A program made the position numbers and the translations under genes. DNA of 24,000 nucleotides, from the NCBI RefSeq assembly GCF_003259225.1, contig NZ_QHJF01000015.1, positions 69,826 through 93,825 on the forward strand. The letters run 5' to 3'. This DNA comes from Marinomonas arctica. Its GTDB lineage: Bacteria; Pseudomonadota; Gammaproteobacteria; Pseudomonadales; Marinomonadaceae. Under the pieces are notes generated by a model. It saw only the letters and a program-made list of their open reading frames with translations, ran no database searches and had not been told where the DNA came from. Shown here in pieces: positions 2,257 through 16,067 of the stretch; the stretch's first letter is position 1, and each line of letters begins with the position of its first letter.

Positions 2257-3030
2257 TTATGGCAGCAGCTTCACCACAATAAAACCAGTGAATAAAGCGA
2301 TGCTTACTGAAAATAGTGAGCCCAGCATGACGTATTCGGTGAATTTTCTATCGTGGGCTTCCCGTAGATCCCCCATGCGGAAAATGGATTTCGCGGCGAG
2401 TACAAAGCCGACTGCGGTGTATTGGCCGTTTAGTATAAAGGTCAGCACTAAGACGCGTTCAAGGTAGCCCAAATACTGGCCGGCATTCGGTAAGGATTGC
2501 GCTTTCTTGTTTTGTGAGTCGCACACATCGGCTTCCAAGTCCGCCGACCATTTAGATAAAATTTCACCGATGATAATAGACGCCGGTTTGAGCATCATCA
2601 GATACGCCAGAGTGACGAGGAGAGACGCGCTGTAATCTATGTCATTGATGAGCGTTTTGATTTGTTCTATCGCGGTATCAAAGAGATAAAACCATAAAAA
2701 TAGGATGCTTAGGACATGAAGTAACTGGTCGATAATAAACCACAAAAAGCCTTGTCCAACTTTTACTTTTGCATAATCGATTAGGCTATGAATAACGGCG
2801 AATAGTAAGCTGATAAAGAGCGAGCCTAACAAGCTGGTGGCGGTTGCGAAACTCACAATCACTAAGACAATGGCGCCATGAACCAGCCCATGATAATACA
2901 AAGCGCTCGAACGGCCTTGGTGCGTATTTTTGTCTTTCACCCATGAGTTTGGCTGTAAAAAGAAATCGCCAATCACATGTCCGAGTAACAACATAAGCAA
3001 CACAGGCAAACCATCGAGCTGAAACATCAC
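2257..3030 (-). CDS. DUF3307-family polytopic membrane protein (His/Asp-rich TM helices), second gene of the satD operon
   Basis: 257 aa with about 7 hydrophobic segments. The N-terminal LLGHVIGDFFLQP block and repeated H/D positions (HGLVHG, VIHSLIDY, IIDQLLH) match my memory of DUF3307. The start overlaps the satD stop (GTGATG: GTG 3030 or ATG 3027; TGA 3029-3027), and AAGGAG lies 6-9 nt upstream. Confidence 0.75.
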   Translation of the reverse strand: MMFQLDGLPVLLMLLLGHVIGDFFLQPNSWVKDKNTHQGRSSALYYHGLVHGAIVLVIVSFATATSLLGSLFISLLFAVIHSLIDYAKVKVGQGFLWFIIDQLLHVLSILFLWFYLFDTAIEQIKTLINDIDYSASLLVTLAYLMMLKPASIIIGEILSKWSADLEADVCDSQNKKAQSLPNAGQYLGYLERVLVLTFILNGQYTAVGFVLAAKSIFRMGDLREAHDRKFTEYVMLGSLFSVSIALFTGFIVVKLLP

Positions 3031-3692
3031 GACATACTCCTTATTAACGTGGTTGCTAATGCATCCAAGGTGTCTAGTATCAAACTGGCATTTGCCCGTT
3101 GCAAGCGTGAGGCTAACGAACGTCGATGAATCCCGGTCTTGGCCGACAGCGCGTCTTGCGTTAATTCAGGGTAGAGTAGGCGAGGAAATAAGACTTCAGC
3201 CTGTTTCTCACTGAGGCCCGTCATTATAAAATCTAGGTGACGAATCAATAAATCACGGCTGGGGTTGGCTTCAACGGTGTCTGGCAAAGACAGCTTAAGG
3301 CGTTCTTCATCCATGTCTTTCAAGGCTCGGCCAGACAGCTGAAAGGCTTCGCCTTTGGCGGTTTTTCTCAGCTCAGCCTCGATCTGTTTATACGAACCAA
3401 TGCCAACAGACACCCGAGCATCGGCGCCTTTTACACACTTCATCAGTGTGAGTCTTAATAAGATAGCGCAGCGCAGCGCGTGTTTTGGATTGGGTACAAA
3501 TACCTGAAACTCATCACCGCGGAACACATCGCCCTGGGCATGGAATTCATCTTGGAAAATGGCAATGGCTTGCTCAACCTGCTGTAAACAGGCTTGATGC
3601 TCAGCATCCGACAAAGCACTGGAATTGACAATGTCTCCAGTGACAACTCCGCCTGTATTCATATCATTAGCAACATCATTAAGAGACGCCAT
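3027..3692 (-). CDS. SatD-family protein: N-terminal nucleotidyl-cyclase/GGDEF-like palm motifs plus C-terminal HTH
   Basis: The ORF track starts at GTG 3713, but a perfect AAGGAGG (3707-3701) sits 8 nt upstream of ATG 3692, so I place the start there (221 aa). Motifs seen are VVTGDIVNSS, VFRGDEFQVFV and RVSVGIGS, followed by a sigma70-region-4/LuxR-like tail (LSEKQAEVLFPRL...TQDALSAKTGIHRRSLASRLQRA). The SatD name is from memory (PF16264), and SatD classically pairs with DUF3307. Confidence 0.7.
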   Translation of the reverse strand: MASLNDVANDMNTGGVVTGDIVNSSALSDAEHQACLQQVEQAIAIFQDEFHAQGDVFRGDEFQVFVPNPKHALRCAILLRLTLMKCVKGADARVSVGIGSYKQIEAELRKTAKGEAFQLSGRALKDMDEERLKLSLPDTVEANPSRDLLIRHLDFIMTGLSEKQAEVLFPRLLYPELTQDALSAKTGIHRRSLASRLQRANASLILDTLDALATTLIRSMS

Positions 3693-3754
3693 CGAATTAT
3701 CCTCCTTCACCACAAGCCCAACTTAACGGCTTTCATATGAGCTATCAAAGCATA

Positions 3755-3787
3755 ATTCATTGACCAAAGCCAGTTTGGTCAATGAAT
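3755..3787. promoter_or_regulatory. Perfect 14-bp-arm palindrome (candidate operator) in the satD / hsdR divergent intergenic region
   Basis: ATTCATTGACCAAA-GCCAG-TTTGGTCAATGAAT. The arms (3755-3768 and 3774-3787) are perfect reverse complements. Confidence 0.55.
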
Positions 3788-3812
3788 AGTGACCAATTAT
3801 GGTTTGGTCAGT
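3788..3812. promoter_or_regulatory. Second palindrome with the same TGACCAA half-site, immediately abutting the first
   Basis: AGTGACCAA-TTATGGT-TTGGTCAGT, with 8 of 9 arm positions matching. Together with 3755-3787 it gives four TGACCAA(A/T) half-sites within 58 bp. Confidence 0.45.
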
Positions 3813-3900
3813 ATTTTAGTGTTTATTAGCGATCCGTTTGCTGGTTAGTTTGCTAATACGCTCGGCTTTGCACAAAACTTTCGTTATATTAGGAAGTTAA

Positions 3901-6363
3901 ATGGAGTTGCAGCGGATAGGTGGCATGACCTCAGGTATTAATAAAGCAAAATTATCAGAAACCGACATCATCACGAAATTTATTCTGCCCGCTGTTAAAA
4001 ACGCTGGTTGGGATGATCGTACACAGATACGACAAGAGTTCCCAGTTACAGATGGTAAAGTGGTGGTGCGAGGTCAAGTGGCAGCACGGCAGAAGGCGAG
4101 AAGAGCCGATATTGCGCTCTTTTACAAAGACGGTATGCCGCTGGCGGTGATTGAAGCCAAGTCCAATCAATATTCTGTTGGTCATGGTATTCAACAATCC
4201 TTGGATTATGCCGAACGATTGGGTGTGCCTTTTGCTTTTGCTAGTAACGGTAATGGCTTTTTATTCCATGACAAAACCAATCTAAACCAAGTTGAAAGTG
4301 AGATAACGCTGGACGACTTCCCTAGTTGCGATCAGCTTTGGGTAAAATTCTGTGAATGGAAAGGCTATCGTAACGACCAGCTTCCCTTGTTGACGCAAAG
4401 TTACCACAGCGATGGTGAGGGCAAAGCGCCTCGTTATTACCAGATGCAGGCGATTAACCGCTCCATAGAAGCTGTAGCCAAAGGCCAAAATCGCTTGTTA
4501 TTAGTCATGGCAACAGGCACAGGTAAAACCTATACCGCCTTCCAAATTATTTGGCGTTTATGGAAAGCCAAGCAGAAAAAGCGCATCTTATTTTTAGCTG
4601 ACCGCAATGCCTTAATCGATCAAACTTTTATCAACGACTTTCAGCCGTTTGGTACGGCCATGACCAAAATCAAAGGCCATAAAATTGACCCAGCTTATGA
4701 AATTCACCTTGGTTTGTATCAGGGTATGACAGGCACGGAAGAGATACAAAAAGTCTATAAAAAAGTATCTCCTGATTTTTTTGATTTGATTGTGATTGAT
4801 GAATGCCACCGAGGCAGCGCGGCAGAAGATAGTAACTGGCGTGACATTCTCGACCACTTTAGTGGCGCGACACAAATTGGTTTAACAGCCACTCCGAAAG
4901 AAACCGAAGACGTATCGAATATCGAATACTTTGGCGAGCCGATTTATACCTATTCCCTTAAACAAGGTATTGAAGATGGCTTCCTTGCACCCTATAAAGT
5001 GATGCGTGTTGACATTGATGTGGATGTACAAGGCTGGCGACCAGAAAAAGGTAAGTTAGATAAAGATGGCAATTTGGTAGATGACCGCATCTACAACCAA
5101 AAAGACTTTGACCGTAACCTAATAATCGACGAGCGCACCCAGTTGGTGGCACAAACCGTGACCAACTACTTAAAACGCACCGACCCCATGGCGAAGACCA
5201 TCGTGTTTTGTAACAACATCGATCATGCCGAACGCATGCGCCGGGCTTTGATTAACCTTAATCCTGAACAGGTGGCGAAAAGCGACAAGTATGTGATGCG
5301 CATTACGGGCGATGAAAAAGAGGGCAAAGATCAGCTGAGTTATTTCACTAACAGAAAAGAATCTTATCCAGTGATTGCCACCACCTCGGAGCTGATGACC
5401 ACAGGTGTCGATGCCAAAACCTGTAAGTTGATCGTGCTCGATCAAGGCATACAATCTATGACCAAGTTCAAACAAATTATTGGTCGTGGTACACGTATTG
5501 ATCAGGAATACAATAAGCTTTGGTTCACCATATTGGACTTTAAAAAAGCCACGGAGCTGTTTGCTGATCCGCGCTTTGATGGTGATCCAGAGCAAGTTAA
5601 AGTCAGCACGCCAGCGGCCTTTGCTGATGATGCTCTTCTTGATGAAATGATTCACGAAGGGGAAGAGATCGACCTAAGCCAAGATGACAGCATAGACCCT
5701 GACAGCATTCAAGAGCCCCAAGGTGTCTACCAAAACGGTCATCGTGAAGATTACCAACTGGGTGATGCAGACTGGAATGATGATAAACCACGCAAATTTC
5801 ACGTGAACGGTGTGCAAGTAAAAGCCCTCGCCGAGCGGGTACAATATTATGATACCGACGGCAAACTGGTGACCGAATCTTTTAAAGACTACACCCGCAA
5901 AACCTTAGCGAAGCGTTTTGCTTCCCTGGATGAGTTTGTCAAAACGTGGCAAGCGGCAGAACGCAAACAAGCCATTATTGATGAGCTGGAAGAGTGCGGA
6001 GTGATTTGGGAATTACTCGAACAGGAAGTAGGAAAAGAATTAGATCCATTCGATATGATTTGCCATATCGTATATGATCAGCCGCCGCTGACTCGAAAAG
6101 AGCGCGCTAACCAAGTGAAAAAGCGTAACTACTTCACCCGCTATGATGGTGTGGCACAAGAAGTGCTCAGTCGTTTGCTCGATAAATACGCCGATGCCGG
6201 TGTGGCGGAAATAGAAAACATACAAGTACTTAAAGTCGCGCCGTTCGACCAGTTCGGGCGTATGCAGGAAATTATTAAAAAAGGCTTCGATGGCAAAAAA
6301 GAAACCTATTATGACGCGGTGAAAGCATTAGAAGACGAGCTTTATCAAGATCAAAGCGCATAA
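3901..6363 (+). CDS. hsdR: Type I restriction enzyme R subunit (EcoEI/EcoAI-like, with EcoEI_R_C-type C-terminal domain)
   Basis: 820 aa. The N-terminal nuclease region has [15 protein letters not shown] and D...EAK (ADIALF...AVIEAKS). SF2 helicase motifs are present: MATGTGKT (I), VIDECHRGS (II, DEAH-like), GLTATP (III) and QIIGRGTR (VI). AGGAAG lies 6 nt upstream of ATG 3901. Confidence 0.95.
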
Positions 6364-6381
6364 CACCACCCCCAATTCATA

Positions 6382-6420
6382 TTTCACTCAGGCCAAAGCC
6401 AGTATTTGGCTTGAGTGAAA
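6382..6420 (+). promoter_or_regulatory. Stem-loop between hsdR and hsdM that shares an 11-nt core with the satD/hsdR operator
   Basis: TTTCACTCAGGCCAAA GCCAGTA TTTGGCTTGAGTGAAA forms a 16-bp stem with one G.U position. It contains CCAAAGCCAGT, which is identical to 3764-3774. No U-tract follows, so it is more likely an operator or processing/attenuation element than a terminator. Confidence 0.45.
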
Positions 6421-6450
6421 TCATTTCGAACAAATGCAATAGAGAACATT

Positions 6451-7914
6451 ATGTCCATCACGACTGTCATCAAATCCATCCAAGACATTATGCGCAAAGA
6501 CGCTGGCGTAGACGGCGACGCCCAACGCCTTGGTCAAATGTCATGGTTGCTGTTTCTAAAGATTTTTGACGCCCAAGAAGAAGAGCTAGCCTTTGAACAG
6601 GATGATGCTTATCAAGCACCCATTCCAGAAAATTACCTATGGCGTAACTGGGCAACCAATCCCGAAGGCATTACTGGTGACGATCTGCTCGATTTCATCA
6701 ATGATGATCTGTTCCCCGACATGAAAAACCTTGATGCCACTCGTGATCGTAATCCTCGTGGTTTTGTGGTGAAAGAAGCCTTTAGTGATGCTTACAATTA
6801 CATGAAAAACGGCACCTTGCTGCGTCAGGTGATCAATAAACTCAACGAAATCGATTTTACCGATTCTCAAGAGCGTCATCTGTTTGGTGATATTTACGAG
6901 CAAATTCTGCGCGACTTGCAAAGTGCAGGCAATGCAGGGGAATTTTACACGCCTCGTGCCGTGACTCAGTTTATTGTCAACCGTCTCGATCCCAAACTAG
7001 GGGAAAGTATCATGGATCCTGCCGCAGGCACGGGCGGCTTTCTTGCTTGCAGTTTTGATCATGTAAAAGACCGTTATGTGCAGACCACGGAAGATCATCA
7101 AACCCTACAAAAGCAGATCCACGGCGTGGAAAAAAAGCAGCTGCCGCATTTATTGTGCATCACCAATATGATGTTGCATGGTATTGAAGTGCCCGTGCAA
7201 ATTCGTCATGGCAATACCCTGAACCAGCCGTTGGCAAATTGGGACAGTAATATTGATGTGATCGCCACCAATCCTCCGTTTGGCGGCACAGAAGAAGACG
7301 GCATTGAAAAGAACTTTCCCGCCGATATGCAAACCCGAGAAACCGCCGACTTGTTCTTGCAATTGATCATAGAAGTACTGACCAACCAAGGCCGAGCAGG
7401 GGTGGTATTGCCTGATGGCACCTTGTTTGGCGAAGGTGTGAAAACCAAGATCAAAAAAATGCTCACGGAAAAGTGCAACCTGCACACCATCGTGCGTTTA
7501 CCGAACGGCGTGTTTAACCCTTACACCGGCATTAAAACCAATATCCTGTTTTTCACCAAAGGCCAGCCGACAAAAGACGTGTGGTTCTATGAGCATCCGT
7601 ATCCAGAAGGTGTGAAAAACTACAACAAAACCAAGCCAATGAAGTTTGAAGAATTTCAAACCGAAATCGATTGGTGGGGCGACGAAGCGGATGGTTTTGC
7701 CAGCCGTGTGGAAACCAACCACGCGTGGAAAGTCTCTATCGACGAGATCATCGCGCGGAACTTTAACTTAGACATTAAAAACCCTTATCAAGAAGCGGTA
7801 GAAAGCCACGATCCAGAAGAGTTGCTGGCCACTTACCAAGCGCAGCAAGACGACATTGCTGCGTTGCGCAACCAGCTAAAAGACATACTCGGCGCGGCGC
7901 TGGCAGAAAAATAA
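6451..7914 (+). CDS. hsdM: Type I R-M N6-adenine DNA methyltransferase M subunit
   Basis: AdoMet motif I is DPAAGTGGFL and catalytic motif IV is NPPFGG. The N-terminal HsdM_N block is IQDIMRKDAGVDGDAQRLGQMSWLLFLKIFD. The track start (GTG 6415) lies inside the 6382-6420 hairpin. ATG 6451 (MSITTVIKS...) is the more plausible start and gives 487 aa. Confidence 0.93.
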   Translation: MSITTVIKSIQDIMRKDAGVDGDAQRLGQMSWLLFLKIFDAQEEELAFEQDDAYQAPIPENYLWRNWATNPEGITGDDLLDFINDDLFPDMKNLDATRDRNPRGFVVKEAFSDAYNYMKNGTLLRQVINKLNEIDFTDSQERHLFGDIYEQILRDLQSAGNAGEFYTPRAVTQFIVNRLDPKLGESIMDPAAGTGGFLACSFDHVKDRYVQTTEDHQTLQKQIHGVEKKQLPHLLCITNMMLHGIEVPVQIRHGNTLNQPLANWDSNIDVIATNPPFGGTEEDGIEKNFPADMQTRETADLFLQLIIEVLTNQGRAGVVLPDGTLFGEGVKTKIKKMLTEKCNLHTIVRLPNGVFNPYTGIKTNILFFTKGQPTKDVWFYEHPYPEGVKNYNKTKPMKFEEFQTEIDWWGDEADGFASRVETNHAWKVSIDEIIARNFNLDIKNPYQEAVESHDPEELLATYQAQQDDIAALRNQLKDILGAALAEK

Positions 7915-7938
7915 ACCAAGGATGGGAAGAAAAGCAGT

Positions 7939-9015
7939 ATGACAAATAGCATGCAAAAATCGCCCGAAAAGCAAATAACTCAAACGTCTGATTACCTGTT
8001 TAAGACATTACAAAGTGTGATTAAAGACGTTAAAAAGCAAGTCTCGACGCAAGTCAATTCAGCATTAACAATGATGTATTGGCATATCGGTAAGCAAATT
8101 TATAATGAGTTATTGCAGCAGCAACGGGCAGAATACGGGCAAGCTATTGTTAAGGCATTAAGTCGTAAACTGACCAATGAATTTGGTAAAGGGTTTAACT
8201 ACAGTGCGCTCACACGTATGCAAAAGTTTTATAGTGCTTTTCCAGAAGAGCCAATTGTTGCGACACTGTCGCAACAATTGAACTGGTCACACATTGTTTT
8301 ATTGTTGCCCATTAAAGACCCACTTGCACAACGATTTTACGCTCAAATGGCGGTCAACGACCATTGGAGTGTTCGCACCTTGCGTAACCGCATCGACTCT
8401 ATGTTATTTGAGCGCACTGCCTTGTCGAAGAAACCAGACGAACTCATTCAGCAAGAATTAGCACAATTGAAAAAACAGCAAATTACGCCTAACTTGTTAT
8501 TAAAAGATCCATATCTATTGGATTTTTTAGATCTGAAAGACCACTATCTTGAGAAAGACTTAGAAGACGGCATTTTAAGAGAATTAGAATGCTTTTTGTT
8601 AGAACTAGGCAGCGGTTTTAGTTTTATTGCCCGCCAGCATCGTGTGCAAATAGGCCAAGAAGACTTTTACATTGACCTGTTATTTTACAACCGTAAGCTC
8701 AAACGACTGGTTGCCCTTGATTTAAAACTGGGAAAATTCAAAGCCGCTTACAAAGGGCAAATGGAATTGTATTTGCGTTATCTGGCGAAATACGAACAAC
8801 AGCCCGACGAGCTAGCGCCACTGGGTATTATCTTATGCGCCAGTAAAGATCAAGAACAAGTAGAACTGCTCGAACTAGACCGTACCGATATTCATGTGGG
8901 TGAATACCTCACGGCGTTACCTTCCAAAGAACAGCTGCAAAATAAGTTACATCAGGTTATGGCGAGCCGACTTGATGCCGTCAGCGACGCAACAGATCTA
9001 GCCAAAGGCGAATGA
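7939..9015 (+). CDS. DUF1016 / YhcG-like PD-(D/E)xK nuclease-fold protein inserted between hsdM and hsdS
   Basis: 358 aa. The N-terminal YhcG-type helical domain has MYWHIGKQI, YGQAIVKALSRKL, LSWSHI-like QQLNWSHIVLLL and YAQMAVNDHWSVRTLRNRIDSMLFERT. The C-terminal nuclease core has EKDLEDGIL, FSFIARQHRV and DFYIDLLFYNRKLKRLVALDLKLGKF. Its stop overlaps the hsdS start (ATGA at 9012-9015). Confidence 0.9.
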   Translation: MTNSMQKSPEKQITQTSDYLFKTLQSVIKDVKKQVSTQVNSALTMMYWHIGKQIYNELLQQQRAEYGQAIVKALSRKLTNEFGKGFNYSALTRMQKFYSAFPEEPIVATLSQQLNWSHIVLLLPIKDPLAQRFYAQMAVNDHWSVRTLRNRIDSMLFERTALSKKPDELIQQELAQLKKQQITPNLLLKDPYLLDFLDLKDHYLEKDLEDGILRELECFLLELGSGFSFIARQHRVQIGQEDFYIDLLFYNRKLKRLVALDLKLGKFKAAYKGQMELYLRYLAKYEQQPDELAPLGIILCASKDQEQVELLELDRTDIHVGEYLTALPSKEQLQNKLHQVMASRLDAVSDATDLAKGE

Positions 9016-10793
9016 CCATGACTCAGCACAACCACATTAACCACCTGATAACCGACAACATGGACGTTTGGACCAGCGCTATCAAACGCAAATCCAGCTC
9101 GGGCCGAGGCTCAAGCAAAAAAATAGAACTGTACGGCATCAAGAAACTGCGCGAGCTGATTCTGGAGCTTGCCGTGCGTGGCAAGCTGGTTCCACAAGAC
9201 CCAAATGACGAACCTGCGTCTGCTTTGCTAGAACGCATCGCCGCCGAGAAAGCCGAACTGGTCAAACAAGGCAAAATCAAAAAGCCGAAAAAGCTGCCAG
9301 AGATTACCGAAGACGAAAAACCGTTTGAACTGCCGAAAGAGTGGGAGTGGGTGAAATTAGGAGATTTATCTAGTGATATTCATTATGGCTATACAGCGTC
9401 AGCGATGCCAAATTCTGAGGGTATTAGGCTTCTCAGGATTACAGATATTCAAGATGACAAGGTTAATTGGTCAACTGTTCCTGCATGTGAAGTAACGCCA
9501 GAAAAAGCAAAGGGCTACTTGCTTGAAAATAACGATATTTTGTTGGCGCGTACTGGAGGAACTATTGGTAAATCCTATCTTGTCGAGAATATTGATGTAA
9601 AGGCAGTCTTTGCGTCTTATTTAATTCGTGTTCGTAAGATTGAGTCGATGTATGCATCGTTTATAAAAGTTTATTTAGGGAGTCAGCTGTACTGGACGCA
9701 GCTTTATGCCAATTCTGCTGGGACGGGACAGCCTAATGTTAATGCTACAGCACTGAAGTCGTTACTTTTTCCAGTGCCACCTATTGAAGAACAACACTGC
9801 ATTGTCGCCAAAGTCGATGAGTTGATGGTGCTTTGCGATCAGCTAGAGGCGCAAACCGAATCCAGTCTTGATGCTCACCAAACCTTGGTGACAGCCTTGC
9901 TAGACACCTTAGTGAATAGCCAGAATCCTGAAGAGTTGACGGAAAACTGGATGCGCATCAGCGGCCACTTCGACACCTTATTCACCACAGAACAAAGCAT
10001 CGACCAGCTCAAACAAACCATCCTACAACTGGCTGTGATGGGCAAGCTTGTCGAGCAAAACCCCAACGATGAACCTGCCTCGGTTCTACTTGAACGCATC
10101 GCCGCTGAGAAAGATGACCTAATTAAACAAGGCAAAATCAAAAAACAAAAACCACTGCCACCGATTACCGAAGAAGAAAAACCGTTTGAGTTACCAGAAG
10201 GGTGGGAGTGGTGTCGATTTGGGGTTTTGTTTAAGTCATTTTCAAATGGTCTGTACAAACCTGCGAAATTTTATACAGATGCTGGTGTGATCTCTTTGAG
10301 AATGTATAACATCCAAAATGGATGTATTGATTTTAATGCAGCGAAAAGAGTCGAGGTTGAATCTAAAGAATTAGAGCAGTTTATATTAGAAGCTGGTGAT
10401 CTTTTGATTAATCGAGTTAATAGTAAAGAGCTTGTAGGTAAAACTGGAATAATTCCTAAAATGGAAGAGCCATTAGTGTATGAAAGTATGAATATGCGAG
10501 CTAAACCCTTTACAAATTATTTATCTTCTGAGTATTTGAATTTATTTATGATGACAAGGATGGCACAGAATTCTATTTCATTGTTTGCTAAAGAGGCAAT
10601 TGGGCAGGCATCAATAAACCAAGGGCAAGTGAGTTTAATTAAAACGCCTTTGCCGCCATTCGAAGAACAACACCGAATCGTCGCCAAGGTCGATGAGTTA
10701 ATGGCTATCTGCGACCAGCTGAAAACCCGACTCAGTGAAGTGCAAACCACGCAACTGAACCTTGCGGATGCGTTAGTCGAGCAAGCTTTGTAA
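9012..10793 (+). CDS. hsdS: Type I R-M specificity subunit (two TRDs, long duplicated conserved regions; size matches the EcoAI/EcoEI family IB)
   Basis: 593 aa. There are two variable, A+T-rich target-recognition domains (about 9360-9770 and 10215-10645). Each is preceded by an (E/Q)LAV.GKLV.Q.PNDEPAS.LLERIAAEK...KPFELP..WEW block and followed by P.PP.EEQH.IVAKVDELM..CDQL. Confidence 0.95.
   Translation: MTMTQHNHINHLITDNMDVWTSAIKRKSSSGRGSSKKIELYGIKKLRELILELAVRGKLVPQDPNDEPASALLERIAAEKAELVKQGKIKKPKKLPEITEDEKPFELPKEWEWVKLGDLSSDIHYGYTASAMPNSEGIRLLRITDIQDDKVNWSTVPACEVTPEKAKGYLLENNDILLARTGGTIGKSYLVENIDVKAVFASYLIRVRKIESMYASFIKVYLGSQLYWTQLYANSAGTGQPNVNATALKSLLFPVPPIEEQHCIVAKVDELMVLCDQLEAQTESSLDAHQTLVTALLDTLVNSQNPEELTENWMRISGHFDTLFTTEQSIDQLKQTILQLAVMGKLVEQNPNDEPASVLLERIAAEKDDLIKQGKIKKQKPLPPITEEEKPFELPEGWEWCRFGVLFKSFSNGLYKPAKFYTDAGVISLRMYNIQNGCIDFNAAKRVEVESKELEQFILEAGDLLINRVNSKELVGKTGIIPKMEEPLVYESMNMRAKPFTNYLSSEYLNLFMMTRMAQNSISLFAKEAIGQASINQGQVSLIKTPLPPFEEQHRIVAKVDELMAICDQLKTRLSEVQTTQLNLADALVEQAL
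9168..9350 (+). repeat. hsdS conserved-region direct repeat, copy A1
   Basis: Clearly similar at the DNA level to 10029-10212, sharing exact runs gaacgcatcgccgc, aaacaaggcaaaatcaaaaa, gattaccgaaga, gaaaaaccgtttga and gtgggagtgg. Confidence 0.85.
9771..9854 (+). repeat. hsdS distal conserved-region direct repeat, copy B1
   Basis: Encodes PVPPIEEQHCIVAKVDELMVLCDQLEAQ. Its DNA is similar to 10647-10730 (gaagaacaacac, atcgtcgcca / attgtcgcca, gtcgatgagtt). Confidence 0.8.
10029..10212 (+). repeat. hsdS conserved-region direct repeat, copy A2
   Basis: Partner of 9168-9350, about 860 bp downstream in the same frame. Confidence 0.85.
10647..10730 (+). repeat. hsdS distal conserved-region direct repeat, copy B2
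   Basis: Encodes PLPPFEEQHRIVAKVDELMAICDQLKTR. Partner of 9771-9854. Confidence 0.8.
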
Positions 10794-10808
10794 CCAAGGA
10801 GGGTGTCT

Positions 10809-11516
10809 ATGAGCGAACTTTATAATGTGTATTGTGATGAATCTTGCCACTTAGAAAACGATGGTATTAACGTGATGACGTTGGGGGCGCTTTGGTGTCC
10901 TGTGGCTAAGCGGGCTGACATTTCCAAACGGCTTCGAGAAATCAAGGTAAAACATGGGCTGTCAGCAGATTTTGAAATCAAATGGACTAAAGTAAGTAAA
11001 GGGCGGTTGGACTTTTATCTCGATGTCATTGATTACTTTTTTGATGACGATGATTGTCATTTTAGAGGTTTGGTCGTACCTGATAAAACAGTTCTTAATC
11101 ATCATAACTTTGGTCAAACTCATGATGATTGGTACTACAAAATGTACTTTGTTATGTTGAAAAGTATCTTTGACCCAGAATCAAAATATCGTGTCTACAT
11201 TGATATTAAAGACACATTGGGTCATGAAAAAATTACCAAGTTGCACGATGTCGTTTGCAATAGTCATTATGATTTTTCGCAACATATGATAGAAAAAATG
11301 CAGCGCATTCATTCTCATGAAGCGGAACAGCTTCAAGTGGCCGATCTGTTGATAGGTGCATTAGCCTATTTACATCGAGGGCTCACAACGAATCAAGCAA
11401 AGCTTGATTTAATATCAAGAATTAAAGAGCGTAGTGGTTATCAATTAACGCGCAATACTTTGATTAGAGAAAGTAAGTTTAATCTTTTAATTTGGAATGG
11501 ACAGGGAGATTCCTAG
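10809..11516 (+). CDS. DUF3800-family protein (uncharacterised; predicted nuclease-like fold)
   Basis: AGGAGG (10797-10802) lies 6 nt upstream of ATG 10809; the track start GTG 10803 is too close to the SD. The N-terminal VYCDES block and C-terminal QLQVADLLIGALAY block match the Y.DESG ... LQ.AD.L.G signature I associate with DUF3800 (PF12686). The gene starts only 15 nt after the hsdS stop. Confidence 0.75.
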   Translation: MSELYNVYCDESCHLENDGINVMTLGALWCPVAKRADISKRLREIKVKHGLSADFEIKWTKVSKGRLDFYLDVIDYFFDDDDCHFRGLVVPDKTVLNHHNFGQTHDDWYYKMYFVMLKSIFDPESKYRVYIDIKDTLGHEKITKLHDVVCNSHYDFSQHMIEKMQRIHSHEAEQLQVADLLIGALAYLHRGLTTNQAKLDLISRIKERSGYQLTRNTLIRESKFNLLIWNGQGDS

Positions 11517-11998
11517 TGACATCGGCATGGCTGCCAGATTTGGTGTTATTTAATGATTACGACGGAGATTGGAATCGTTATTTAAATGCTATCTATGCTT
11601 ATTTCGAAGCAGATTTTGTCTTATCAAAGCCGACCTTTCGTGGCGTTAGACTAGGGTTAAAGCGTTATCCTGAATACGATGGAAAGTCTGCGACTTTTTG
11701 GCATATGACCAGTACAGGGGATGATGAAAACGAGCGAACACCAGATTTTCGTCGTTGTGAGCGTATTCGTTGGCCAAAGCCAATTATTGAAAACGATCAA
11801 CATTTATCTTTAAAAATGTGGGCTGAACCTAAAGGTAAAAATAAGCGCATTCATATTTGGTATGAGCAAAAAGGATATTTAGTTGTGCTAGATGATAGAG
11901 GCGACTATATCTTGCCTTGGACTGCATTTTACGTTGAGCGTGAACATGAAAGACGAAAATACAATAAACGTTGGGAACGAAATAGAGATAATGTATAG
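11516..11998 (+). CDS. Hypothetical 160-aa protein with no recognised family; translationally coupled partner of the DUF3800 gene
   Basis: GTG 11516 overlaps the DUF3800 stop (TAGTG) and has GGGAGA 7 nt upstream. The alternative ATG 11492 (track, 168 aa) has no SD. The ORF has coding-like composition. The protein has a W/Y/R-rich core (FWHMTS, RRCERIRWPKPIIEN, YLVVLDDRGDYILPWTAFYV) and a basic tail (REHERRKYNKRWERNRDN). Confidence 0.6.
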   Translation: MTSAWLPDLVLFNDYDGDWNRYLNAIYAYFEADFVLSKPTFRGVRLGLKRYPEYDGKSATFWHMTSTGDDENERTPDFRRCERIRWPKPIIENDQHLSLKMWAEPKGKNKRIHIWYEQKGYLVVLDDRGDYILPWTAFYVEREHERRKYNKRWERNRDNV

Positions 11999-12017
11999 GA
12001 AGTAACTAAGAAAAGCT

Positions 12018-12039
12018 GACCTCGCCCTCTTGCGAGGAC
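12018..12039 (+). terminator. Weak GC hairpin after the hsd/DUF3800 operon (possible operon end)
   Basis: CCTCGC (12020-12025) pairs with GCGAGG (12032-12037) across a 6-nt loop, about 20 nt after the stop at 11998. There is no U-tract, so the call is weak. Confidence 0.25.
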
Positions 12040-12248
12040 GGTGTCGTAACTCCTTCTACACATGGTAGATGAGATGCATGAATATTAGCTACATGAGTCA
12101 ATATTTGCAAGTAATTCGTTTTAAGCATAGGGGAGCTGTATTTCTTCATGATTAATTTTATGCTTTATTAGCGAGATTTTACGCAGAAAGTACAATCGTG
12201 AGCAATTAGAGACTATTGTAGGTTTTACGGTAGTTAAGGAGATGCGAA

Positions 12249-12410
12249 ATGCTAATTCCTAAAAAAGAAAAAGTGAAATCGACGCCTTTTTCTGTTTTTT
12301 TTCGACATGCTAAGTCGGCAGAAAAACGCCAGTTTTTTGATCGGATCGCAAAAAAAGCGATTGAAGAGCAGCAACAGATGCTTGAAAAAGCTAAGAACAT
12401 GCCACAATAA
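12249..12410 (+). CDS. Small 53-aa basic/helical protein (below the ORF-track cutoff), stand-alone transcription unit
   Basis: AAGGAG (12236-12241) lies 7 nt upstream of ATG 12249. The translation is MLIPKKEKVKSTPFSVFFRHAKSAEKRQFFDRIAKKAIEEQQQMLEKAKNMPQ*, with TAA at 12408-12410. A clean intrinsic terminator follows 22 nt later. This ORF is a better explanation of the region than the antisense Cys-rich 64-aa track ORF at 12206-12400. Confidence 0.55.
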   Translation: MLIPKKEKVKSTPFSVFFRHAKSAEKRQFFDRIAKKAIEEQQQMLEKAKNMPQ

Positions 12411-12432
12411 ATGACTTTATTGTTTATACCAG

Positions 12433-12455
12433 AGCCGCTTGATAGCGGCTTTTTA
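12433..12455 (+). terminator. Rho-independent terminator of the 53-aa ORF
   Basis: AGCCGCT (12433-12439), loop TGAT, AGCGGCT (12444-12450), followed by TTTT. Confidence 0.65.
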
Positions 12456-12643
12456 GTCTGTAAAACCTGTAGTGCTAAAACTATTTGGTTCCACTTGGGC
12501 GCAGTGCTAATGGCTTAAAGGAATGGAAAGACAGTACTGGACGAGAGTTAGTAGCGGTAGAAGAGGTTGAGATAAAAGAGGCGTAAAGCAAAATCTAACT
12601 GTTAGCTTATCCGATAATATTGTTAAACGATGATTTTATGCTT

Positions 12644-12678
12644 AAAACGCCGTGAGCTATGAAGACGTGATCACGGCG
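12644..12678 (-). terminator. Probable intrinsic terminator of the darT-darT-darG operon
   Basis: On the minus strand, CGCCGTGA (rc of 12671-12678) pairs with TCACGGCG (rc of 12648-12655) across a 15-nt loop, followed by TTTT (12644-12647). It begins 14 nt after the darG stop. Confidence 0.5.
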
Positions 12679-12691
12679 CTTTAACTGTTGT

Positions 12692-13792
12692 TTACGCGTT
12701 TTGGATAAGTGGCTGATAGGTGTTTTTTAAACGATTTAAGGCAATGTTAATCGAGCGTTCATCAAATAAGTTTGTTTTGCGTTTTGCGCTTGCTTCTCCG
12801 GCGGGCCAGTGCTGAATGCCTTGAATGATTTTTTGTAGATCAGGTTCGATGTTTTCTTTGCTAACGAGCCAATCAATCGTAGACAGCAACTCCATACCAA
12901 AAGGCGTCTCAAAACCGTCTATCAGCTCTATTGTGTCTTGTAGAGACGTCAGATAGGGAGCCATTTCTGCACTTTTTAAGTAAGTATTTAGCTGATCCTG
13001 TTTTGAGTCCTCAAACCAAATTACGTCGAGTGGTTCCGCATCATTAATGCGTTTATTACAGTACAGATAAATTCCATCCAGATGGTCTATTAAGTGTCTG
13101 AGCCTGTCTGCGTATGGGCCATATAGGTTCGCTTCGAACCTAAGGTCTAGTGGGTTGTCGGTTTTATTCGATCCGTTGTGTTTTTCAATTGAGCGCTCTA
13201 AAAACCAAGCCAGCTTCTGAACTTCCAGCAAAGTACACTCCATCCCCATCACCCAGTATTGGCGAATTAATTCTGCAATCATGGCTCTAGCAGGGGTGAG
13301 TTTTGTGTGGCCTTTTTGTTTGGCAACATTTTGATAGCGCTGTGTTGGTTCGAAAACCAAAATATCGACAGATTCTAGGTCACCGAGAATGCGCTCAATT
13401 TCAGGTTTTACGCTTTCCCAGTTAAGCTTGCCATTACCCGCACCCAAAGCAGGAATCGCAATGGAGTTTAGATGATTATCAAGAATGACTTGTTTTAGAT
13501 CTACTAAGCCTTCCGTAATCCACTCTAATTTAGACGGATTGCGCCAATGGCGCTTAGTCGGGAAGTTAACAATCCATCTTGGTCCAACGAGTTCGCCCGT
13601 TTGGGTAACGAACATGCGACCTGTTTCTACTTGTTTTGCTTTACAAGCATTTGCATAATCTTGTGTATTTTTGGGAAAGCGTTCTTTAAACATGAGCGCG
13701 ATGCCTTTTCCCATTACACCAACGGTATTCACCGTATTAACGAGGGCATCGACATCCGCTTCGAGTAAGTTGCCTTGTGTGTAATGAATCAT
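12692..13792 (-). CDS. darG: DarG-like antitoxin: N-terminal macrodomain (DNA ADP-ribosyl glycohydrolase type) plus about 200-aa C-terminal domain
   Basis: Macrodomain blocks are [50 protein letters not shown] (TARG1/DarG-type Lys) and [16 protein letters not shown] 13792 overlaps the darT stop (CAATGA). The track start GTG 13804 is less likely. Confidence 0.88.
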
Positions 13793-14442
13793 TGAAAATA
13801 CCACTGTGTCATTTTTCGAACATCGATAGCTAGAGATTTTTCCTTCACTATTTGTTCAAGCTGTTGTTTCATTTCGTCTGAATAACAAACAATGCCCAGT
13901 AAACTGGTGATGGGGCAATGTTTATAAACCAAGGCTTCTGCTTGGTAGCGTTCGATTTGGGCCGGGTCGTCTTGGTTTCGTTGAAAGTTTCGTTGTTGAA
14001 TAATAGTCCAATCTAGTTTTATTAGCTCGTCTGAATTATCGAAAAATTCTGCAAACGCTGTGTAAGCATGACGGTCTGTGAAAACAAAAGGTACCTTTGA
14101 GTCTATTAGTTTTGGTATTGAAGAGACTAAGATGACAATTTCTTCATTGGCTCTTTGTTTAACGCCACCGCGACCTGTGTGTATGTTGTACATCATAGGA
14201 GAGAAAGGCGTGAAGTAGAAGGGAATATAATCACTCAGTGTGCCGTATGGCTTGATGGGAACATTGCGCTGAGTACGTTTGTGAATTAAGTCTGTATTGC
14301 CTATTGGTTCATAGTGCTCTGCGACCTTTTGTGAGCTGGCACAATGAAGGCCATTATCCAAAATCCAAGCAAGGTTATCTCTATGGACAATTCTCCATAT
14401 GAGTGCTTTTTCTGGGTTTAGGTTTGGATAATGATTAGTCAT
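13789..14442 (-). CDS. darT: DarT (DUF4433) DNA ADP-ribosyltransferase toxin, canonical thymidine-type (DarT2-like)
   Basis: 217 aa. Block-by-block resemblance to Thermus/Mycobacterium DarT as I recall it: [57 protein letters not shown] and [12 protein letters not shown] (ARTT Glu). It sits directly upstream of, and overlapping, a macrodomain gene. Confidence 0.88.
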
Positions 14443-15013
14443 GATGTTTTACAAACATATTCTCGTTTATTTGCGTGTTGACCGTGATGTTAACAGATTT
14501 CATTATTTGTTGAACTTGCTGATCTACCGTTTGGCTTTGGGTGAAAATTTTAAAAAATTGACTCGCTGGAATCGATTCTGGTGAAAGGCATTCTGCCATA
14601 CAAACGCTTTTACAATTTTTATCGCTGTAGTTTCTTTGATCCATTAGATCCCAGTTGATGTGCTCCATTCCTTGGTTGTAATTGAGTCTGGTCGTCTCTT
14701 CGTTTGCAAGTGGATGACGTGGAATAATTTGCCAATTATTAGCGCTGGCGTGATCTCGTCTTACTGCGATTAATATGAACGTTTTGTTCTTATAGGAGTG
14801 CTGAGCTGCTAAGTCAAAAGGGTTTTTGCTGAAAAAGTGAAAGGGTACATAGTCTTGAAGTTTTTGAGCTTGGCGTTTTGTAACAATATCGCTGTCTGCG
14901 ACGTCGGTAAAATCGGTCAGTTGGCTGCGTGGTAATAAGCCATGTTTAAGAATAGATTCAAGGTTTTCTAAGCTTGTTAGATGGTACAGCAGTCTTTGGT
15001 CTTTAATTGACAT
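14435..15013 (-). CDS. Second, divergent DarT-like (DUF4433-like) ADP-ribosyltransferase paralogue; first gene of the operon
   Basis: 192 aa. Blocks seen are LLYHLTSLENLESILKHGLL, QDYVPFHFFSKNPF, INWDLM and CMAECLSPESIP (a candidate catalytic Glu in the same relative position). AAGGA lies 7 nt upstream of ATG 15013. Its last codons overlap the darT start by 8 nt (ATGACTAA). Confidence 0.7.
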   Translation of the reverse strand: MSIKDQRLLYHLTSLENLESILKHGLLPRSQLTDFTDVADSDIVTKRQAQKLQDYVPFHFFSKNPFDLAAQHSYKNKTFILIAVRRDHASANNWQIIPRHPLANEETTRLNYNQGMEHINWDLMDQRNYSDKNCKSVCMAECLSPESIPASQFFKIFTQSQTVDQQVQQIMKSVNITVNTQINENMFVKHHD

Positions 15014-15046
15014 CGTGAAATCCTTTTTACTGAAGTTGTTTTGGTT

Positions 15047-15061
15047 GTACAGTGCGTGTAC
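15047..15061. promoter_or_regulatory. Small palindrome between a TACAAT -10-like box and the SD of the darT operon (candidate operator)
   Basis: GTACA-GTGCG-TGTAC. GTTGTAC plus AGTGC recurs at 15115-15138. On the minus strand a TACAAT box (rc of 15077-15082) lies just upstream of the palindrome. Confidence 0.25.
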
Positions 15062-15196
15062 TTATATATCTAAGACATTGTAATGAATAAAATGAGTCAG
15101 AACCCTCAAAAATAGTTGTACTTGTTAGTTAGTGCACCCTTTGCGTTTAAGGTGGGTAATCTCTTTTGTTGCTGGGGCTTTTTTAGACTCTTTTGG

Positions 15197-15802
15197 CTAG
15201 AGCTCTTCTGTCTTAAATTCGCTGTAGCCTTCGTAGTAGTAACTCACGTCAATGCCTTTCATAAAGACCGAGCGGTCGTGAATTTTATCGGTTAAGGCTT
15301 GTTTGAGTAGTACTTTAATTTCAACGTCTTTGACGACGCTGCGCTGCATCGAAGAAAGGTATTCGTCTTTATCGACGGCGTTCCAGTCTATTACCTGTTT
15401 GATTTCTTTTTTGAATATAAGGTCAAGCCAGATGCGAGTGGCGCGACCATTGCCTTCGCGAAATGGGTGGGCGATGTTCATCTCTACATATTTTTCGACG
15501 ATCTCGTCGAAATTGCTCTGGGGCATGGCATCGATGTGTTTCAGCGATGGCTCTAAATACATGAGGGGAGCAAAGCGGAAGCCTCCTTTGGCAATGTTGA
15601 CCTCACGAATCTTGCCTGCAAAGTGGTAGATATCGTCAAACAAATAGGCGTGAATAAAGGCGAGACCTCTAAAGGTGCCAATCTCAACTTTTTCGATGTC
15701 ACTGGAGTCAAACAGCTGTTTCGCTTTTTGCTTACTGATTTTTTCCTCTGCTTTCGCGAGTTCTATTTGGTCAGTGATATTGAGTTTGTTTTCCAATAGC
15801 AT
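15197..15802 (-). CDS. fic: Fic-domain AMP-transferase, class III (C-terminal autoinhibitory helix), NmFic-like
   Basis: 201 aa. The Fic active-site motif is HPFREGNGRATR (HxFx(D/E)GNGRxxR). The C-terminal SYYYEG matches the (S/T)xxxE(G/N) inhibitory motif. No small antitoxin ORF lies upstream. Confidence 0.9.
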   Translation of the reverse strand: MLLENKLNITDQIELAKAEEKISKQKAKQLFDSSDIEKVEIGTFRGLAFIHAYLFDDIYHFAGKIREVNIAKGGFRFAPLMYLEPSLKHIDAMPQSNFDEIVEKYVEMNIAHPFREGNGRATRIWLDLIFKKEIKQVIDWNAVDKDEYLSSMQRSVVKDVEIKVLLKQALTDKIHDRSVFMKGIDVSYYYEGYSEFKTEEL

Positions 15803-16067
15803 GTTACATGCCCTCTGTTTTTACTATGTCTGCTTTTGAACAACGGCTTTTAGTGTTTTACATCGAATAGCTGAGAATGATCCTTTATTCTACCGTAAAG
15901 TGCTCTTAGGCTTCATTGCTATTTTGGGAAAAATTACTGTTTGGGTCCGGTAGCTTGTTGTTGGCTTTAGATGTGTTGAAATACGTTCTGGGTTACTGAT
16001 GTGCCCAATAAAAAAGAGAAGCCATTCGACTTTTCTTTTTTATTTCTGAAGTGTGATTTACGCAAGG

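Follow-up and report, generated by a model that had tools for sequence, protein, structure and literature searches.

The 24,000-nucleotide (nt) stretch of Marinomonas arctica DNA analysed here (assembly GCF_003259225.1, contig NZ_QHJF01000015.1, positions 69,826 to 93,825; hereafter the window) carries a type IB restriction-modification (R-M) operon. At its 3′ end lies a mobile module of three parts, namely two coupled open reading frames (ORF-A and ORF-B) and a small structured RNA gene that runs towards ORF-B from the opposite strand. The module measures about 1.3–1.7 kb and extends from approximately position 10797 to 12110, and to 12478 in Marinomonas. The genes hsdR, hsdM, DUF1016/YhcG, hsdS, ORF-A and ORF-B are all co-directional. 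An earlier note on this DNA had proposed a two-gene defence system that ends at 11998 with ORF-B. This delimitation has to be revised, as the unit extends to about 12110 and the conserved small RNA gene is its invariable third part. The coordinates of all features are collected in Table 1.

The stop codon of hsdS (TAA, 10791-10793) is followed by a Shine-Dalgarno (SD) sequence and by ORF-A at a distance of 15 nt, just as the earlier note had read. The start position of 10803 given there corresponds to an in-frame GTG that is indeed present but directly abuts the SD sequence, and the ATG at 10809 is therefore the likelier start. The stop codon of ORF-A (TAG, 11514-11516) and the GTG start codon of ORF-B (11516-11518) overlap by one nucleotide (TAGTG). 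Use of this GTG is supported by the alignment of residues 1-157 with positions 1-157 of the PADLOC model PDC-M04B and by homologues of 160 amino acids (aa) that cover 100% of the query. The translational coupling deduced from TAGTG and the upstream GGGAGA is supported by comparison with related loci, in which stop and start codon overlap by 4 nt or 1 nt in 60 of 79 cases, and a scan of the DNA between hsdS and the end of ORF-B found no terminator-like site there, again as claimed before.

ORF-A (235 aa) matches the Pfam family DUF3800 (PF12686) with 43 bits against a gathering cutoff of 21 bits, and its residues 1-232 align with positions 1-229 of the 232 positions of the PADLOC model PDC-M04A (PDLC04353; expectation value (E) 3.8e-97). 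It is 52% identical to RlfA of phage P1 (tblastn, E 5e-68) and 100% identical to a protein from Marinomonas. A Foldseek search of the PDB with the AlphaFold2 (AF2) model of ORF-A, which has a predicted local distance difference test score (pLDDT) of 88, retrieved archaeal RNase HII, human RNase H2A and bacterial RNase HIII with a probability of 1.0 (3p83, 4py5, 3puf and 1eke; E 8e-6 to 1e-4, template modelling (TM) score 0.45-0.57, identity 9-16%). D10, E11, D132, D135, Q176 and D179 are invariant among 54 homologues and include an N-terminal DE and a C-terminal QxxD motif (Q176xxD179). The predicted protein thus shares with type 2 RNases H (RNase HII/H2/HIII) the overall fold and four invariant carboxylates in equivalent order. 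In contrast to these enzymes, it lacks membership of the family at the sequence level, with no match to Pfam RNase_HII and no relative in a profile search of PDB sequences. The predicted RNase HII/H2-like fold together with the invariant residues makes it plausible that ORF-A is an active nuclease, in agreement with the nuclease-like character suggested for it earlier. The same likeness to RNase H2 has already been remarked for DUF3800 proteins of type VII retrons and of Cas12-linked loci (PMC7736814; FLSHclust paper), and a “catalytic rearrangement” was reported for DUF3800 in the FLSHclust paper. No biochemical function was found in the literature on DUF3800.

ORF-B, which the earlier note could not place in any family, belongs to the family of P1 RlfB (42% identity, E 2e-27) and of PDC-M04B (PDLC04357; E 2.3e-75). 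The family comprises 1,597 representative clusters, and the best 150 of the 1,597 are proteins of 100-255 aa, nearly all of which match over a single stretch. Judged from these sequences, ORF-B represents a large stand-alone family. Its isoelectric point (pI) is 8.6, and many basic and aromatic residues are invariant in the family. The predicted fold is alpha+beta, with a meander of four strands and a basic C-terminal helix (AF2, pLDDT 91.7). A relaxed scan over 47 members found no consistent Pfam family at E≤10, a profile search of PDB sequences found no relative, and a structure search of BFVD with ORF-B returned one family member as the sole match. NTF2-like designs, HigB and colicin D were considered as fold relatives of ORF-B and rejected, given weak and inconsistent Foldseek matches (E ≥0.18, TM ≤0.3). 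The label “replication protein” of phrog_16230 was given no weight, because the RefSeq record of P1 carries the same unverified product name for RlfB.

Both PDC-M04 model matches are full-length, on the same strand and adjacent, as the PADLOC definition of PDC-M04 demands of its proteins. To assess how constantly the two genes occur together, we searched from ORF-B with one genome per species, which yielded relatives in 333 species from many phyla, and 80 loci were retrieved. A DUF3800 gene homologous to ORF-A (hereafter A) lies directly upstream of the ORF-B homologue (B) in 79 of 79 evaluable genome loci, the overlap of A stop and B start being 4 nt in 43 and 1 nt in 17 of them. The reverse search, started from A in viral contigs, found B next to it in 78 of 79 evaluable loci. 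The question raised in the earlier note, whether the two families co-occur across genomes, can hence be answered in the affirmative from both sides. One viral locus (L127 in our numbering of loci, 6723-7370) contains A and the RNA (40.6 bits), and the B profile finds nothing in the intervening 650 nt. A very divergent B or a replacement protein may be encoded there.

Blocks of homology extend 60-480 nt beyond the stop codon of B, and an alignment of this downstream DNA exposed a non-coding element that is conserved across phyla. In the window, it corresponds to an RNA of about 70 nt that reads from 12076 to about 12005. Hairpin H1 (12075-12050) is formed by CUC-A-UCUAC, a loop and GUAGA-AG-GAG; an optional extra stem is inserted into its loop in Gammaproteobacteria. 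It is followed by a linker (UUAC in the window, UWAC generally) and by the G+C-rich hairpin H2, the core stem of which occupies 12037-12020. H2 is followed by UCAGCUUUUCUU in the window and by CAGCCUUUUU across the family, and given this U-run it reads as an intrinsic terminator. The hairpin that the earlier note had placed at 12018 is H2. The conserved core motif begins 11-67 nt past the stop codon of B. A sigma-70-type promoter precedes the RNA, and its -10 element lies about 6 nt upstream of the 5′ end. At least 8 of 12 promoter positions are present in 72 of 78 genome loci, with a spacer of 17 nt in 59 and a -10 element ending 6-7 nt before a conserved AGCUC in 70, while a control region inside ORF-B shows no promoter candidate in 61 of 78. 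The window promoter itself matches at 8 of 12 positions, the cut-off of the generic scan being 9 of 12.

The fold of this RNA is supported by covariation. RNAalifold predicts two helices in the alignment, and in 76 distinct sequences standard pairs fill 98.5% of the cells, compared with 89.3% in shuffled alignments and 44-55% when the partner columns were slid. Compensatory cells number 146 versus 49, and none of 500 shuffles reached the observed values. Approximately 151 cells are G-U pairs, for instance U-G at columns 63:82 in 62 of 76 sequences; read on the plus strand, such pairs become A-C mismatches, and this points to the minus strand as that of the RNA. In a wider set of 91 sequences including phage copies, 17 of 18 pairs show compensatory change, a figure that leans towards structure as this alignment was fitted to the model. 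The window RNA has a minimum free energy (MFE) of -24.4 kcal/mol (z -2.9), its predicted fold reproduces H1 and H2, and the covariance model scores it with 80 bits (E 2.5e-21). For the P1 copy z is -5.8, and the MFE structure keeps just the apical stem of H1 plus H2. Unpaired positions are nearly invariant across phyla, and no hypervariable single-stranded segment exists. The 3′ arm of H1 (columns 44-51 of alignment A5) holds a Shine-Dalgarno-like GAAGGAGU that hardly varies between Bacillus phages and Marinomonas, and for which contact with 16S ribosomal RNA and contact with a protein were both considered. Three further ideas on the RNA were discarded. Pairing of its 5′ GCUCAUC with GAUGAGC at the A-stop/B-start junction fails in the window, which has UAGUGAC, and in roughly half of the loci; no start codon follows the invariant GAAGGAG, as coding of a peptide would require; and a tRNA-like reading finds neither a transfer RNA (tRNA) in the window by ARAGORN nor T-loop or anticodon-loop features in the RNA.

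Table 1. Positions of the module and of the R-M operon genes in the window
Feature	Position	Strand	Basis or remark
Shine-Dalgarno sequence AGGAGG of ORF-A	10797..10802	+	6 nt before ATG 10809; read in the sequence
ORF-A, 235 aa, DUF3800, P1 RlfA homologue, PDC-M04A match	10809..11516	+	Pfam, PADLOC, tblastn, AF2/Foldseek
SD-like GGGAGA of ORF-B	11504..11509	+	within the 3′ end of ORF-A, 6 nt before GTG 11516
ORF-B, 160 aa, P1 RlfB homologue, PDC-M04B match	11516..11998	+	PADLOC, comparison with P1, AF2
Small structured RNA gene, convergent with ORF-B	12005..12076	-	reads from 12076 to about 12005; covariation, covariance model, fold
Sigma-70-type promoter of the small RNA	12082..12110	-	-35 TTGCAA 12110-12105, 17-nt spacer, -10 TAATAT 12087-12082
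Non-coding tail of the cassette	12111..12478	.	blastn block ends 12468-12495
hsdR, type IB (EcoAI/FtnUII family) restriction subunit	3901..6363	+	NCBIfam NF046051, 1153 bits vs 550-bit cutoff; first gene of the operon
hsdM, type I methyltransferase subunit	6415..7914	+	NCBIfam hsdM/MAD2 matches
DUF1016/YhcG PD-(D/E)XK gene between hsdM and hsdS	7939..9015	+	Pfam DUF1016_N 8e-48, YhcG_C 8e-47
hsdS, specificity subunit	9012..10793	+	NCBIfam PRK09737 3.7e-55; stop codon 15 nt before the start of ORF-A

The RNA accompanies A and B without exception in the genome loci. A pattern search found the core motif in 77 of them and the covariance model added L005, so that the RNA is present in 78 of 78 evaluable loci; the model also detected it in L057, where A lies off the contig. 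Among viral loci with A and B that are not cut by a contig end, 60 of 61 possess the RNA and the remaining one gives a weak hit. Apart from these, no match below E 0.9 was returned by the covariance model in 655 kb. In phage P1 (47 bits, E 2e-11), the RNA directly follows rlfB and lies between rlfB and pmgF on the minus strand (approximately NC_005856 52896-52978; L001 5444-5526), has its own promoter (TTGAAA-17 nt-TAGATT) and a terminator that overlaps the rlfB stop codon, and has no entry among the features annotated for P1, so that it appears to be a small RNA gene without annotation. Bifidobacterium phage Bbif-1 (49 bits) is a third phage with the A-B pair, located there near an integrase. 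Two unusual arrangements indicate that the RNA behaves like a gene in its own right that acts in trans. In L099, an insertion of about 2.8 kb separates A from B (6684-9500) and the RNA remains beside B, and in L092/L093 (7299-7378) the RNA is encoded on the A-B strand instead of being convergent.

While A and B do not occur without the RNA, the RNA frequently occurs without A and B. An exact scan for the H1 pattern, which was built on the proteobacterial sequence type, found it in 47 viral contigs, of which 3 carry A-B and 44 the RNA only, in IMG/VR “viral” contigs that can include prophage-adjacent host DNA. The covariance model confirmed the whole RNA in the 44 RNA-only contigs (36-75 bits). 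Among the matches listed from metagenome contigs, 64 of 101 evaluable RNA copies lie beside A and/or B, whereas 37 of 101 do not. Clustering revealed no protein neighbour shared by the RNA-only loci, first in 44 and then in 93 of them. H1 and the linker, with the consensus CUCAUCUnCCAnGnGUAGAAGGAGUnAC, are common to A-B-linked and RNA-only copies, whereas the U-run is conserved in the A-B-linked copies only. Six RNA-only loci lie inside phage tRNA arrays (L173 9847-9922, L194 5228-5287, L204 5097-5172, L197, L199 and L207), which comprise up to 31 tRNAs plus transfer-messenger RNA (tmRNA), and 37 tRNAs. The position of the RNA on the tRNA strand suggests that it is co-transcribed and processed with the tRNAs. 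One RNA-only viral contig (L176, 5051-5189) has two tandem head-to-tail copies with 38.8 and 35.3 bits.

Annotated phages with the RNA only are Bacillus phage phi3T and SPbeta-like relatives, Vibrio phages 1.084.O and 1.121.O and a Geobacillus phage; it occupies unannotated intergenic DNA in each, and the records of these phages contain no A or B. In phi3T (KY030782, about 49012-49085; L210 4000-4073), it lies in a long unannotated gap between phi3T_55 and yonK. In Vibrio phage 1.084.O (L211 4000-4071), the gap is likewise long and unannotated, with an HNH nuclease gene on one side and, on the other, a block with a COG0617 (CCA-adding enzyme-like) gene. The P1-type RNA was further found in 174 of 5426 complete E. 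coli genomes, at 118 places on plasmids and 61 on chromosomes. In 30 listed replicons from these 174, it is unannotated or overlapped only by calls of hypothetical proteins or an oxidoreductase. An RNA-only copy (36 bits) lies on the chromosome of E. coli SCU-105 (L212, 992397-1004467), and at this one inspected chromosomal site no A or B occurs within 6 kb. The RNA there follows three co-directional unannotated genes, the first cut by the edge of the stretch and the others encoding 918 aa and 104 aa, neither of which has a Pfam match; on the other strand it is overlapped by a 139-aa “hypothetical protein” call, which may be spurious.

A two-gene defence candidate embedded in R-M loci has been predicted before. 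Payne, Hughes, Fineran & Jackson (bioRxiv 10.1101/2024.01.29.577857) proposed 145 phage defence candidates on the basis of their embedding in BREX, DISARM and type I R-M loci, and PDC-M04 figures among them as cassette CAS_00034 (FAM_00014>>FAM_00043, count 679; supplementary table 8). This supplementary table was the only literature found to name PDC-M04. Gene order and the R-M-embedded setting are alike, whereas PDC-M04 was predicted as a protein-only pair without the RNA gene or the RNA-only phage copies, which are added here. Phage P1 rlfA-rlfB (rapA-rapB in P7) has the same gene order, the same overlap of 1 nt (rlfA ends and rlfB starts at 52444) and the same RNA after rlfB. Unlike the genes in the window, however, rlfA-rlfB are located after the lytic replicon (kilA-repL/oriL) under a C1 operator and without an R-M operon. 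The P1 record describes rlfA/rlfB as “possibly associated with lytic replication”, and no function was found for them in the literature.

RNAs beside DUF3800 genes have been described before. Eleven structured motifs, DUF3800-I to -XI, were reported without a proposed function (Weinberg et al. 2017, PMC5737381), and, in the portion of that paper open to us, they resemble the window RNA in their association with DUF3800, in either orientation, and in ending with a Rho-independent terminator; the same portion reports no RlfB-type partner, R-M link or RNA-only phage copies. The covariance models of DUF3800-I (RF02969) and DUF3800-IX (RF02968) did not match the window at E≤10 or ten related loci at E≤1. 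These are the two that Rfam 15 holds, and the window RNA is thus neither of them. It may be one of the other nine, the comparison having covered DUF3800-I and -IX. Rfam 15 as a whole gave no relevant match (window at gathering score, 10500-12800 at E≤10, ten related loci at E≤1). In the literature searched, no paper was found to print the sequence strings of the RNA, and no description of the RNA and its phage-borne copies was found for the RlfAB/PDC-M04 family.

That A-B is never seen without the RNA, while the RNA is often seen without A-B and especially in phages, is what one would expect of a toxin-antidote pair, with phage mimicry as counter-defence. It is this asymmetry that leads us to favour, tentatively and by analogy, an RNA-restrained nuclease that would be released when the RNA is depleted in infection, the phage copies acting as antidotes. 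The two proteins would form a nuclease complex, and the small RNA would bind to it, probably through B, and keep it inactive. An infection that cuts off or depletes the RNA would release the nuclease, which may then cleave RNA or intermediates of RNA-DNA hybrids, so that phage replication is blocked or the cell is killed. Phages with the RNA only, some of them with the RNA in tRNA arrays, would supply the antidote and escape. The earlier note had also considered a toxin-antitoxin (TA)-like pair of proteins. Given that the small RNA is the invariable third part, such a reading must place the RNA, and not B, as the likeliest antidote.

The proposed logic is that of type III TA and abortive infection systems. 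In ToxIN, CptIN and TenpIN, the toxins ToxN, CptN and TenpN are endoRNases, and the antitoxin is a tandem-repeat RNA that is encoded upstream and processed by the toxin. Fineran in 2009 and Blower in 2012 are said to have described abortive infection by such systems and phage escape by means of a pseudo-ToxI RNA. By analogy, a nuclease that may be neutralised by an adjacent small structured RNA and the existence of RNA-only phages would be common to both. However, several points weigh against our proposal. The candidate toxin of the window is RNase H2-like and joined by a second protein instead of being a ToxN-type endoRNase, and the RNA is a single-copy hairpin element, downstream and convergent, not an upstream tandem repeat. 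ORF-A and ORF-B match no PADLOC model besides PDC-M04, no Pfam family besides DUF3800 and none of ToxN, CptN and TenpN. Toxin fold, RNA architecture and gene order thus differ, and the module stands outside the type III TA families. The model of ORF-B has no fold match in the PDB by Foldseek (best E 0.18), and its role as complex partner is a guess. The make-up of the viral survey mentioned above bears on the RNA-only fractions, and data on toxicity, phage protection or RNA binding were not found in the literature for any family member. In P1, the genes lie behind a C1-repressed operator beside the lytic replicon, so that expression is expected in lytic growth, which is unusual for a defence that protects the lysogen. 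Finally, the near invariance of H1 including GAAGGAGU might reflect binding of a universal cellular target and hence a different role of the RNA.

Alternatively, A and B could form a ribonucleoprotein nuclease in which the RNA is indispensable as a structural or targeting subunit, with the phage copies serving as decoys or another purpose. Argonaute and PIWI proteins offer a precedent, as they use an RNase H fold with a nucleic-acid guide. A linkage of 100% between A-B and the RNA, and the retention of the RNA beside B in L099, would fit a cofactor, and DUF3800 proteins keep suggestive company: eleven different structured RNAs associate with their genes (PMC5737381), they are fused to or paired with retron reverse transcriptases, which are makers of RNA-DNA hybrids (PMC7736814), and they accompany Cas12a2/a3 and Cas13 loci in published surveys. 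However, an RNA with nearly invariant unpaired positions and no hypervariable guide segment cannot be programmable, and phages, which would have no benefit from activating a nuclease of the host, commonly carry copies of the RNA, even in tRNA arrays. We therefore regard a cofactor role as unlikely.

A role outside defence, namely accessory processing of nucleic acids (R-loops, primers or one particular small RNA) while mobile elements replicate, with hsdS as a mere recombination-prone site of insertion, appears quite unlikely to us. It is suggested by the P1 name “replication-linked function”, by the position of the genes after kilA-repL/oriL and the C1-controlled operator and by their induction with early lytic replication genes (bioRxiv 10.64898/2025.12.28.696737), as well as by a predicted ORF-A fold that is that of RNase H2, an enzyme of replication and repair, and by an RNA that travels with tRNAs and tmRNA in large phages. 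On the other hand, rlfA and rlfB were non-essential for P1 plaque formation in a genome-wide CRISPR interference screen (PMC10695390), and the rlfAB locus is replaced by other cargo in P1-like plasmids (PMC6906374). Moreover, the bacterial loci have no replicon nearby, and their neighbours are overwhelmingly R-M and other defence genes, many of which are joined to the cassette by overlapping codons.

In these neighbourhoods, HsdS (Methylase_S) is the immediate upstream neighbour in 38 of 73 loci and HsdR the downstream neighbour in 10 of 69, and Mrr and GmrSD are also among the downstream neighbours. The upstream neighbour is on the same strand in 70 of 73 loci, and in 32 of 73 it shares 4 nt or 1 nt with the beginning of A, many cassettes overlapping hsdS or being translationally coupled to it. 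The link to R-M is frequent, with a type I gene detectable in 48 of 70 loci, but it is not obligate, since the cassette is also found in phages P1, P7 and Bbif-1 and the remaining 22 of the 70 loci show no type I gene. The view that the cassette was acquired separately and docked onto the R-M operon is supported by nucleotide comparison. Positions 10656-12468 are 96% identical to M. lutimaris, whereas hsdR/hsdM are just 73-83% identical, and Marinomonas sp. TW1 has 10759-12478 alone in common with the window (90% identical) and no R-M gene upstream. The A+T-richness that had been taken as a sign of this acquisition is real in comparison with hsdR and hsdM (G+C content 0.35-0.39 over 11001-12000 versus 0.42-0.48) but is not confined to the pair, G+C content being similarly low in the 3′ half of hsdS (0.39) and in the DNA downstream (0.38). 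Taken together, the neighbourhoods and comparisons support a conserved cassette whose two genes are translationally coupled and for which type I R-M operons are docking sites.

It is very unlikely that the RNA acts only in cis, as an antisense transcript that terminates or silences A-B transcription from the opposite strand in the manner of txpA/RatA, with A-B being the whole system. An almost universally convergent arrangement, an RNA 3′ hairpin near the B stop codon, the lack of another terminator found after B and the full complementarity of a read-through A-B messenger RNA are what this arrangement would predict; conservation of sequence and structure, however, far exceeds the need of an antisense transcript, the covariation maintains a fold within the RNA itself, L092/L093 have the RNA in the opposite orientation, and the RNA is kept without A-B in 93 loci and several phages. 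A type I TA system with a 3′-overlapping antisense RNA was rejected on similar grounds, A and B being soluble proteins of 235 and 160 aa and not small hydrophobic type I toxins.

PrrC, RloC and Abi genes are known embedded genes of type I R-M loci. The module resembles them in that it lies within an hsd operon or at its end, but the ABC-ATPase and anticodon-nuclease domains of PrrC and RloC were not found in A or B by Pfam and PADLOC, and the cassette also occurs without R-M. That the module is latent under the Hsd complex and fires when a phage anti-restriction protein disables restriction, as in PrrC/EcoprrI, is accordingly highly improbable: its place immediately behind hsdS, or flanked by hsdS and hsdR, with codons that frequently overlap, the type I genes in most loci and the R-M embedding on which its PADLOC listing is based (bioRxiv 10.1101/2024.01.29.577857) would suit such a guard, but not the loci devoid of type I genes, the R-M-free cassette of Marinomonas sp. 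TW1, P1 rlfAB and Bbif-1 without adjacent type I genes, or the linkage to at least two HsdR families with 54-72% and 22-30% identity to the window HsdR.

Returning to the RNA-restrained nuclease, we consider it possible, with due reserve, that RlfA-RlfB/PDC-M04 is a widespread RNA-gated, RNase H-like immune or addiction module of an undescribed kind, in which the RNA of about 70 nt would be antidote or ligand and the stand-alone phage copies (phi3T, tRNA-array phages) would be counter-defence. If this is true, it would give a function to P1 rlfA/rlfB and reveal an unannotated small RNA gene in P1, and should the RNA indeed be the antidote, the module would combine protein and RNA in a way that is new for abortive infection and would add to the examples of phage RNA mimicry. 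Taken alone, the two-gene module is one more instance of a catalogued candidate. The anatomy of the family now includes a nuclease candidate with named putative catalytic residues, an obligate partner and an RNA with defined promoter, ends and fold, and natural RNA-only versions are available in cultivable phages (phi3T, Vibrio 1.084.O and 1.121.O), the RNA being present in P1 as well. This provides an entry point to the role of DUF3800 proteins and their many associated RNAs, to the purpose of P1 rlfA/rlfB and to the question why phage tRNA arrays hold small RNAs that are not tRNAs.

The operon upstream of the module contains a second embedded candidate. The DUF1016/YhcG gene between hsdM and hsdS matches the PADLOC candidate PDC-S02 (1.7e-129), and a gene of this type is absent from the otherwise similar operons of M. 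lutimaris and M. profundimaris. The window HsdM is 91% identical to that of M. lutimaris. The operon is part of a defence island (about 2257-15802) that is flanked by housekeeping genes and contains a SatD/DUF3307 pair, DarG-DarT, a second DarT-like gene, Fic and PDC-S02. At its left edge, divergent from hsdR, the DUF3307 gene (2257-3030, minus strand) overlaps by 4 nt a weak SatD-family gene (3027-3713, minus strand) with 25.9 bits, under the 29-bit cutoff.

Downstream of the RNA promoter, about 370 nt (12111-12478) are 90-96% conserved among three Marinomonas species and not in other genera. The sole ORF in this tail (12206-12400, minus strand) has a low-complexity translation and is probably not a gene. 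Next to it follow, all on the minus strand, DarG (12692-13804), DarT (13789-14442) and a shorter DarT-like gene (14435-15013; Pfam DarT 1e-29). This block (12469-15195) is missing in M. lutimaris, where the DNA downstream of the cassette abuts the Fic gene (window 15196-15834, corresponding to 11018-11671 of the M. lutimaris locus L002), and it is either an insertion in the window or a deletion in M. lutimaris. The tandem second DarT paralogue is unusual.

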